From NCBI RefSeq assembly GCF_011045215.1, contig NZ_CP049203.1: a stretch of 4,727 nt of DNA; one strand, 5' to 3'. The translations under genes were made by a program, and so were the position numbers. The notes under the pieces are model-generated. The model had not been told where the DNA came from and searched no databases. It saw nothing but the letters and a program-made list of their open reading frames with translations. Below, piece after piece: positions 899-4,203 of the stretch (within the stretch, counting starts at the first letter, position 1; each line of letters opens with the position of its first letter). The stretch is from Escherichia coli (GTDB lineage Bacteria > Pseudomonadota > Gammaproteobacteria > Enterobacterales > Enterobacteriaceae).

Positions 899-1036
899 GA
901 ATATGGATTTTCATTTTTGTGATATAAATCAAAAAAAATCAATCGTGAGTAGTTCCAAGAGAAACATACGCGAACACTTCATCTAATCGAAAACGAGTGA
1001 AAGATATTTCCAAGAAAAATAAATAATAAGGGCTGC

Positions 1037-1072
1037 GTTTGGGAAACGTACAATAATTTCCGTTTCCCAAAC
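1037..1072 (-). terminator. Stem-loop (12-bp stem, 12-nt loop) between cer and the bacteriocin promoter; candidate terminator or insulator for leftward transcription
   Basis: gtttgggaaacg (1037-1048) pairs with cgtttcccaaac (1061-1072). On the minus strand it is followed by GCAGCCC then a T-rich run (TTATTATTTATTTTT). The T-run is not immediately adjacent, so this is only a candidate. Confidence 0.3.
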
Positions 1073-1115
1073 CGCCCCCAATAAGGCCGCCACACTACAG
1101 CTTTTGCATTAACAC

Positions 1116-1582: not shown

Positions 1583-1832
1583 GCGTATGGCGGAAAAACG
1601 TAAATTTTGCCACCTGAAATAATTCTAATGCACTGATTCCAAAGAGAAATCATGCAAAACGCAGTTTTGCGACAGGTGTGGTGACAGCAGGTCAGAGAAG
1701 GGGCGGATTCAGATATGAATCCGGGCCAGATCCGGGCATTAAGGGGTTCCCGGAAACATGAATAAGATTGCCAGTGCACGGGGATTTTTAATCCCCTGCC
1801 CCGTTGAGCCGCTCCACGGCGAAAAGGGGAAA

Positions 1833-1852
1833 GTAAAGTTAGCTAACTTTAC
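1833..1852. repeat. Perfect 20-bp palindrome gtaaagttagctaactttac; candidate operator or minus-strand terminator hairpin
   Basis: Self-complementary over all 20 bp. On the minus strand it is followed directly by TTTCCCCTTTTC and lies about 130 nt downstream of the stop of ORF 1981-2226. Confidence 0.5.
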
Positions 1853-1980
1853 ATGTCCTGCCCGGCGTTCACCGGTGTTTATGGCGGGGAACTGAACCAC
1901 CGGACGGGTGGAAACATGTGTATTCCTGTGTGCCCCTGTGTAATCCGGTGGATTTGTGTGTGCAAAATTCCGTAGCCGGT

Positions 1981-2891: not shown

Positions 2892-3086
2892 GTGAACAAA
2901 CAGCAACAGACCGCGCTCAACATGGCGCGATTCATCAAAAGCCAGAGCCTGACATTACTCGGGAAACTTGACGCTCTGGACGCCGACGAACAGGCCACCC
3001 TGTGCGAACGGCTACACGAACTGGCGGAAGAACTCTGTGACAGCGTACAGACGCACTTTGAGGCGCAGTACAGCACGGAACCATAA
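2892..3086 (+). CDS. rop: Rop/Rom, RNA I-RNA II pairing modulator of ColE1-type replicons (64 aa, GTG start)
   Basis: MNKQQQTALNMARFIKSQSLTLLGKLDALDADEQATLCERLHELAEELC aligns along its length with pMB1/pBR322 Rop (MTKQEKTALNMARFIRSQTLTLLEKLNELDADEQADICESLHDHADELY, from memory). It is oriented toward the origin as in pBR322. Stop TAA at 3084-3086; GGAGA/GGGAGA precedes the GTG. Confidence 0.9.
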   Translation: MNKQQQTALNMARFIKSQSLTLLGKLDALDADEQATLCERLHELAEELCDSVQTHFEAQYSTEP

Positions 3087-3796
3087 CAGGGGCTGGCGAA
3101 AGCGGTCGCGGCTCGTCCGTGAGCGTTTTCGCCAGCAGACAAGCCCGGAGAGCGCGTCAGGACATGGGCTGAGAGAAACACCGGCGCGTAAGTGCTCAAA
3201 TCAGACTGGCGGAGACATTCCGCTTCCTCGCCCACTCGCTCACTACGTTCGGTCGCTGGGGCTGCGGCGAGCGGTGACGGCTCTCTCATAACGGCGGACA
3301 GTTTATCCACAGAATCGGGGGATAAGCCGGACAGAACATGTGAGCAAAAAGCACGAACAAAAAGGCCGCGGCGGGGCCGTTTTTCCATAGGCTCCGCCTC
3401 CCCCTGGCGAGCTTCACACTTTTCGAAGCTGCAAGCCTAGGATTTGACGAAACCCGATGTGGCTTCAAGATCATCACCGTTTCCGGTGAATCGCTCCCCC
3501 CTGCGACCTCCACATTCCCGCCATATCGTTTGCCGGATACCTTACCGCCTTTCCCCTTGCGGGACCGTGGCGCTTTCTCATAGCTCACGTGCATCTCTGC
3601 GGTATCTCGGGCGACTTAGGCAGTTCGCTCCAGGTCTGGCTGTATGCAGGACCCCCCCTTTCAGCCTGACTGCTGCGCCTGTTCCGGTAACTGTTCTCTT
3701 GAGGCCAACCCGGAAAGACACGCCTTAACGCCACTGGCAGCAGCCACTGGTAACTGGATTTGCAGAGCGAGATGTATACAGATGGTTACAGAGTTC

Positions 3797-3831: not shown

Positions 3832-3940
3832 ACAGTTTTTAGGTAATCTGCGCTCTGCGATAGCCAGTTACCATTGGAACAATGAGAAGGTGAGATGTCT
3901 CATCGCTCCCGGAAAAAACCGCCTTACGGCGGTTTTTTCC
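3832..3940 (+). ncRNA. RNA I (antisense replication inhibitor)
   Basis: Begins ACAGTTTTTAGGTAATCTGCGCTCTGC (pMB1 RNA I begins ACAGTATTTGGTATCTGCGCTCTGC) and ends in the hairpin plus U-tract aaaaaaccgcc-ttac-ggcggtttttt (3913-3936). About 108 nt, antisense to the 5' end of RNA II. Confidence 0.8.
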
Positions 3941-3953
3941 GTTTACAAGCCGA

Positions 3954-3982: not shown

Positions 3983-4203
3983 GAGGATCTTTTGCGATCC
4001 GCCTGAAACTCATCACCGTAATTCCGTCTGTGGAATAAACGCAACCTTTTGCACATTATCGGTTAAATCATAACGAATTTGCATATACAACTGCGGTTCA
4101 AAGCCAGTAAACTGGGGGGCGAAGCCCAACCGTTACCAGCTTTGGTGACGTAATTTCCTGAAGTTCCAGCGTAGAACACCAGTTACCAAAAAACGAACAC
4201 AAC

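Follow-up and report, generated by a model that had tools for sequence, protein, structure and literature searches.

The window, by which we mean the whole stretch of 4,727 nucleotides that was analysed, is a complete-looking ColE1-type plasmid of 4.7 kb. It carries genes for Rop and RNAI, a cer-type resolution core, and a lysozyme-like bacteriocin gene with its own SOS promoter (Table 1). The backbone shows homology with hundreds of plasmids from position 1116 to about position 4000, and this homology ends exactly at the cer core. On the other side, the bacteriocin promoter is kept among relatives up to about position 937. A 159-aa gene downstream of the bacteriocin (4204–4683) is probably the immunity gene. 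The hairpin that is the subject of this analysis lies between the cer core and the bacteriocin promoter, about 130 bp upstream of the −35 hexamer, just where the original prediction had placed it (cer core at 1116–1145, −35 at 898–893).

Table 1. Coordinates of features in the window.
Feature	Position	Strand	Remarks
Bacteriocin gene, 249 aa, GH24 (T4-lysozyme-like)	59–808	minus	Pfam Phage_lysozyme; sits downstream of the hairpin
Bacteriocin SOS promoter	852–898	minus	−35 TTGACA 898–893; −10 TAAGTA 875–870; LexA box CTGT-N8-ACAG 852–867
T-rich tail, TTATTATTTATTTTTCTTGG	1010–1029	minus	Target duplication plus AT-rich target DNA, none of it from the element
Left AATAA, 5-bp direct repeat	1025–1029		Target-site duplication
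Tn3-derived miniature element (TIME), 50 bp, very probably collapsed	1030–1079		Whole extended hairpin; both terminal inverted repeats, joined
Left inverted repeat (IRL), positions 1–26 only, GGGCTGCGTTTGGGAAACGTACAATA	1030–1055	+	Inner 12 positions lost
5' arm of perfect 12-bp stem	1037–1048		Inverted-repeat positions 8–19
Right inverted repeat (IRR), positions 1–35 of 38, GGGGGCGGTTTGGGAAACGGAAATTATTGTACGTT	1045–1079	minus	
Probable deletion junction	1046–1055	+	Lone remaining copy of 10-bp direct repeat ACGTACAATA
3' arm of perfect 12-bp stem	1061–1072		
Right AATAA, 5-bp direct repeat	1080–1084		
cer-type XerC/XerD core, GGTGCGTACAATTAAGGGATTATGGTAAAT	1116–1145	minus	Same 30-mer in ColE1; end of backbone common to ColE1-like plasmids
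Promoter-like site CTGAGA-16-TACAAT	1134–1161	minus	Consensus match only; overlaps XerC half-site, reads toward the hairpin
Rop	2892–3086		Pfam Rop, E = 3.5e-31
RNAI	3835–3942	+	Rfam scan

The bacteriocin gene and its downstream partner (59–808 and 4204–4683), together with loci L013–L060, define a family of bacteriocins of about 250 aa with a Gly/His-rich N-terminus and a T4-lysozyme-like domain. Members of this family have SOS boxes and are followed downstream by a gene without a Pfam match, which encodes 159 aa or, among the more remote relatives, 212 aa; some relatives additionally carry a colicin-type lysis gene. The family is common on small ColE1-like plasmids of E. coli, Klebsiella, Enterobacter and Citrobacter. 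In the window, a 9-bp inverted repeat (TCCATATTC / GAATATGGA, 882–907) surrounds the bacteriocin −35 hexamer and looked terminator-like on the + strand in the scan. Directly past the bacteriocin stop codon there is a perfect 13-bp hairpin (GATGTATTTCATC...GATGAAATACATC, 3–39) with a U-tract on neither strand, and in the list of open reading frames the putative immunity gene follows beyond this hairpin on the same strand.

The backbone contains other repeated structures. Positions 1360–1600 hold dense direct and inverted repeats based on CAGCACCGTAA / GCACCGTTACAGTGC, including a 32-nt inverted repeat (1454–1485 / 1521–1552). This cluster is kept in related backbones and looks like an iteron-like or protein-binding array. 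Two units of about 85 bp (2311–2391 and 2410–2498) are 77–80% alike, and each has a 15-bp hairpin (TTTTGTAGCACTGCC...GGCGGTGCTACAAAA) followed by ATATCCTGTCCCG; they may be single-strand initiation or oriT-related structures. A weak Rfam match to traJ-II (1791–1855, minus strand; 29.5 bits, below the gathering score of 40; E = 0.015) includes a perfect palindrome, GTAAAGTTAG/CTAACTTTAC, at 1833–1852.

The two arms of the hairpin, GTTTGGGAAACG and CGTTTCCCAAAC, are 100% complementary and enclose a 12-nt loop. As RNA, the 36-mer folds with −15.8 kcal/mol on the + strand and −17.3 kcal/mol on the minus strand (z = −5.4 and −5.9), and none of 200 shuffles folded as well. The strong 12-bp stem that had been predicted is thereby confirmed. 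A perfect 12-bp inverted repeat with a loop of 3–20 nt appeared in 11 of 2000 dinucleotide shuffles of the window; the repeat is far beyond chance. When two bulges are admitted, the stem lengthens to 17 pairs over 1030–1079 and reaches −25.4 kcal/mol on the minus strand. The original prediction also had a T-rich run following the stem on the minus strand. This run is present (1029 to 1010) and adjoins the extended stem, but it is not adjacent to the 12-bp stem, from which it is separated by 7 nt (GCAGCCC). In an Rfam scan of the whole window the hairpin was unmatched; the scan returned only RNAI and two weak matches at chance level.

The extended hairpin has the make-up of a Tn3-derived inverted-repeat miniature element, or TIME. 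It is bounded by a perfect direct repeat, AATAA, and Tn3-family elements generate 5-bp target duplications. Both the 50-bp remnant and its 235-bp parent, described below, are well under the 500 bp expected of a TIME, and they contain no open reading frame and hence no transposase gene. The window IRR begins with GGGG and includes TTGTACGTT, which relates it to Tn3 repeats. At least 20 E. coli plasmids contain elements whose IRR matches it with 100% identity over 35 bp. It equals the IRR of the copy in plasmid CP057769 (L001) at 34 of 38 positions and, in a hand alignment, the inverted repeat of a TnEc1-family Tn3-like transposon at 30 of 38. The window IRL equals the first 26 nt of the IRL in L001, L010 and L021 and diverges after position 26. 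As neither terminal repeat is complete, the window copy is a degenerate derivative and not an intact TIME. Thus, the hairpin belongs, in degenerate form, to an already known class of elements and is an ordinary mobile-element scar.

We found the parent by a sensitive plasmid search with the hairpin and its flanks, which thousands of plasmids matched. The best matches came in two pieces with about 245 bp between them, as when window positions 1024–1084 were aligned with CP057769. There the pieces are the two ends, GGGCTGCGTTTGGGAAACGTACAATATTGTACGG... and ...CTAACGTACAATAATTTCCGTTTCCCAAACCGACCCC, of a 235-bp element with AATAA on both sides, and the element ends are Tn3-family inverted repeats (GGGG...TTGTACGTTARG). 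Full-length copies can be flanked by 5-bp duplications (AATAA/AATAA in L001, CACAA/CACAA in L019), and many copies have none. In PLSDB, 938 records cover at least 80% of the parent. It resides in IncF, IncI and ColE1-like plasmids with different flanks, that is, in unrelated contexts, as is expected of a TIME; the collapsed form was seen in two contexts.

MITESen1 is a 256-bp TIME represented in ISfinder, many copies of which lack duplications (Gomi & Yano 2026, PMC13367494). The parent resembles MITESen1 in its 38-bp Tn3-type ends of the same sub-type (GGGGTCAGTTTGG...ATTATTGTACG), its homologous interior, its presence on Enterobacteriaceae plasmids, and its 5-bp AT-rich duplications, which are likewise missing from many copies. 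However, it is 235 bp long and only 67–69% identical to MITESen1 in a global alignment, short of the high identity to the 256-bp reference that would make it an isoform, and the window holds only the 50-bp collapsed derivative. On the strength of these alignments, we regard the parent as a related but separate sub-family, and it may be an unnamed MITESen1-like one. Unlike MITESen1, the parent has an extra palindrome (CGTACAATATTGTACG) in its IRL, and this palindrome created a 10-bp direct repeat.

Additionally, the ends of the parent resemble those of TnEc1-family Tn3-like transposons. The terminal repeat of one of these (GGGGTCAGTTTGGATATCGGAAATTATTGTACGTTAAG), whose transposase is annotated in pDY612-4 (L003), is identical to the L001 IRR at 33 of 38 positions. 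TnEc1-family transposons are autonomous and about 4–5 kb long, with tnpA and tnpR, whereas the window encodes no transposase. Judging from the repeats, they are a likely source of transposase in trans for the parent. In the window, L001, L002, L004 and L027, which are otherwise unrelated contexts, the right inverted repeat is followed by AATAA; two of these five are autonomous TnEc1-like transposon ends. The recurrence of this flank suggests either a strong target preference or co-transfer of the flank.

The route from the 235-bp element to the hairpin appears to run through a 10-bp direct repeat. The sequence ACGTACAATA occurs twice in the 235-bp element, at positions 17–26 (inside the IRL) and 202–211 (inside the IRR). 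A deletion made in silico between these copies in the element of pE2855-5 (L021) yielded the 50 bp of the window with 0 mismatches, and the same deletion in the CP057769 element yielded it with 1 mismatch. We consider it very probable that the hairpin is the scar of a collapsed TIME, whose inverted ends were fused by an internal deletion. With the terminal repeats fused, the 12-bp stem corresponds to their positions 8–19 and the 12-nt loop is the residue of their inner parts. We also considered the opposite order of events, in which the 185-bp interior would have inserted into an older hairpin and ACGTACAATA would be its 10-bp target duplication. We rejected this order because the 38-bp repeats of MITESen1 and of autonomous transposons cross the junction unbroken and because the interior is homologous to that of MITESen1.

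Based on these comparisons, we propose a model for the origin of the hairpin. First, a non-autonomous 235-bp TIME, a cousin of MITESen1 with about 68% identity and with 38-bp ends resembling those of TnEc1-family Tn3-like transposons, would have entered the AT-rich DNA that separates cer from the bacteriocin promoter, and the 5-bp target AATAA would have been duplicated. Second, the 185-bp interior would have been deleted between the 10-bp repeats, one of which lies in each terminal repeat. This probably occurred by replication slippage, aided by pairing of the inverted ends. Third, the remnant would consist of IRL 1–26 fused to IRR 1–35, whose common positions 8–19 form the perfect 12-bp stem. 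As its left end is truncated, this remnant is most likely immobile. Any effect on expression would be a by-product: the 17-pair stem and the U-rich target DNA directly after it on the minus strand may stop some of the transcripts that read through from cer or RNAII in the direction of the toxin gene.

A similar process is known from another transposon. Tn10 reportedly undergoes 'nearly precise excision', a transposase-independent deletion between short direct repeats inside its inverted ends, after which the target duplication and about 50 bp able to fold into a hairpin stay behind. The collapse in the window would be the same kind of event, although here we infer it from sequence. Tn10 belongs to a different transposon family and is a composite transposon, whereas the parent in the window is a MITE.

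Closely related plasmids carry both forms of the element at the same site. Many E. coli assemblies and gut metagenomes encode the bacteriocin, in two variants one residue apart: P0053 and P0054 differ at residue 37 only, and P0054 has the His of the window. Metagenomic and E. coli contigs encoding P0053 (L025, L028–L032 and L034) have the full 235-bp element at this site, with the same cer core and the same promoter on either side. The same arrangement is present in L010, which encodes P0001 (aligned by blastp at 100% to the window protein). In the full-length contigs the junction on the IRL side, which faces the promoter, is identical (CAGCCC/TTATTATTTATTTTT). Contigs encoding P0054 (L009, L035–L037, L039, L041, L043 and L044) have the 50-bp form and the AATAA duplication. 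We counted 128 index blocks for the 235-bp plasmid type and 107 for the 50-bp type, and both are common in nature.

The full-length plasmids do not seem to be the parents of the window. Their IRR differs from the window IRR at three positions (G5 vs T5; AAATT vs AATCT), and they are without 13 bp beside the IRR, one AATAA included. Thus, the sampled full-length plasmids are sisters of the window and not its direct ancestors. As the window is not a one-step derivative of them, recombination with other TIME copies must be invoked. A near-full-length copy with the repeat variant of the window and a TTATT flank is present in a 39.7-kb contig (L027). Our search for an empty site found none among the relatives, which share sequence only to about window position 937 or 982. 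L008, a contig of this plasmid from a metagenome, carries the GGGGTCGG repeat variant, and outside its right repeat the 102-bp flank (positions 1–102) is a different one. The coverage of L008 is 2.9x; the difference may stem from a chimeric assembly at the repeat or from a genuine rearrangement at the element end, and we excluded this contig from the evidence.

A third lineage (L038, L040 and L042) encodes the P0054 bacteriocin, but everything upstream of window position 982/983 has been replaced by an IS101-like end. The replacing sequence, located about 140–230 bp ahead of the start of the gene, comprises the right part of an IS101-like TIME (...CCTCTTACCGTACGTTTTCGTACGGTTGGCCCTCAAACCCC), and before it lies another Tn3-family inverted repeat (reverse complement GGGGTCAGCTCACGAAACGGAAAAAATCGTACGCTAAG). 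The DNA upstream of the bacteriocin promoter thus seems to be a hotspot for Tn3-derived miniature elements. More distant bacteriocins, 69–88% identical to that of the window, have the SOS promoter in common with it up to about position 937 and have no hairpin.

The original prediction had suggested that the hairpin could terminate leftward transcripts from cer or the backbone and so insulate the LexA-repressed promoter. Its geometry holds. With RNAI on the + strand, RNAII runs along the minus strand; rcd and RNAII have the same direction of transcription (PMC2831885); and the promoter-like match that overlaps the XerC half-site reads along the minus strand as well. Transcripts from cer or the backbone would therefore reach the hairpin before the bacteriocin promoter. 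The hairpin is probably not the terminator of Rcd itself. The size of Rcd in the literature is 70–90 nt; in the ColE1 sequence, Pcer (TTGCAT-15-TAAAAT) appears to adjoin the ArgR box, and Rcd probably ends before the XerC site.

Like an intrinsic terminator, the hairpin has a stable stem that contains G+C (12 perfect and 5 further pairs, −25.4 kcal/mol). As to a U-tract, UUAUUAUUUAUUUUU stands directly 3' of the extended stem on the minus strand, but the 12-bp core has 7 nt before its U-tract, and on the + strand no U-tract adjoins the stem. In our own implementation of a d'Aubenton-Carafa-type score, which is uncalibrated, the element scored −4.3 on the minus strand, compared with −3.2 for the RNAI terminator of the plasmid; we obtained −63 for the + strand, −69 for the core of 12 bp by itself and −26 for the full 235-bp element. 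However, the 12-nt loop exceeds the about 3–8 nt of intrinsic terminators, and for this reason a consensus terminator scan of the window did not call the hairpin. Partial, one-way termination of minus-strand read-through is plausible on these grounds. Miniature repeats such as Correia- or ERIC-type elements can donate Rho-independent terminators, and like them the repeat-derived hairpin beside a U-rich run could end transcripts. Unlike them, the U-run of the window comes from target DNA and the loop is 12 nt, and termination is here predicted from the sequence.

It is possible that the collapsed hairpin was later co-opted as a one-way terminator that shields the LexA-controlled lysozyme toxin from cer/RNAII read-through, or that its nearly intact right end still binds transposase, with consequences for movement or target immunity; we give this proposal a small chance. 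We consider it improbable that the hairpin is a dedicated Rho-independent terminator, selected as an insulator against read-through from cer (Rcd, Pcer) or RNAII into the LexA-repressed promoter. The direction of transcription fits this explanation, the promoter-like site in the cer core aims at the hairpin, and there is a precedent in pMB1, whose Xer/cer sites contain an embedded cargo promoter (PMC7315355). The extended stem with its U-rich tail and the strand-specific score, similar to that of the RNAI terminator though uncalibrated, also speak for it. But the stem consists of the inverted repeats of a transposon, and with its 12-nt loop the hairpin was not called by the consensus scan. The hairpin lies outside conserved cer and has no counterpart in the regulatory regions of related bacteriocins. 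The third lineage has lost the site altogether, and plasmids whose bacteriocin differs by one residue carry the 235-bp form with its much lower (uncalibrated) score, so an insulating hairpin is not needed to carry the toxin gene. Given a U-tract that comes from target DNA, a long loop, two forms that are both common, a third lineage that lost the site and relatives that are without the hairpin, we conclude that terminator activity, if any, would be incidental and dispensable. Thus, of the insulator idea, the strand direction and the U-rich tail stand, but the hairpin itself is made of fused miniature-transposon ends.

The 50-mer was also found outside the bacteriocin plasmids. An identical copy is present in pABW_A19b, where its neighbours are yiaY and an ISNCY transposase gene, both truncated; its flanks are unrelated and show no duplication, and a search for a full-length copy at that site found none. 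This copy reflects either a recurrent collapse or movement of the 50-mer. If it moved, the 50-bp inverted-repeat pair could be a still-mobile minimal MITE that is mobilized in trans by a TnEc1/MITESen1-type transposase. The identity of the 50-mer in two unrelated contexts is in keeping with this, as are an IRR intact at 35 of 38 positions and the perfect 5-bp duplication of the window copy. However, the IRL departs from the full-length IRL past position 26 and the inner repeat is lost on one side, and the pABW_A19b copy abuts truncated genes without a duplication. The exact 36-nt hairpin had 0 matches in 100,044 representative genomes, as did the flank pattern, and in metagenomes it was present in two contigs only, both of the plasmid type of the window. 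Insertion of the 235-bp parent explains the duplication equally well, and the near-full-length copy in L027 keeps the TTATT flank. We therefore judge a still-mobile 50-mer to be very improbable.

There is next to no chance that the hairpin is a functional DNA palindrome unrelated to transposons, such as the site of a dimeric regulator or a cruciform in cer/Xer function, since, for all its perfect dyad symmetry near cer, the homology with 773 cer-bearing plasmids stops at 1114–1116, 35 bp short of the element, so that the hairpin is not part of cer, TIME ends account for the entire sequence, and no candidate regulator is encoded nearby.

The collapsed TIME scar has several implications. A conspicuous, 'regulatory-looking' hairpin in a small plasmid can be a transposon scar, which cautions against inferring function from structure alone. 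The 235-bp MITESen1-like element is widespread in enterobacterial plasmids and has a reproducible route to a 50-bp hairpin. The region upstream of the bacteriocin promoter has been hit or rearranged repeatedly by Tn3-derived miniature elements, and such events may explain the transfer of the toxin module between backbones. If the scar terminates read-through, it would be a natural case of a mobile-element remnant that insulates a toxin gene. If co-option or transposase binding proves true, such scars would be functional parts of small plasmids and not debris.

A search of the window for a further TIME copy bordering the bacteriocin module on its other side, as in a composite transposon, found none. 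Plasmid p1 of E. coli J-8 (L007), a ColE1-like plasmid of 4505 bp, has two TIMEs of the 235-bp type in inverted orientation, at about 2111–2335 and about 2927–3162. A cer-like core is 22 bp away from the first of them, and the pair encloses a small hypothetical gene (2512–2865) in what looks like a composite, TIME-COMP-like structure.
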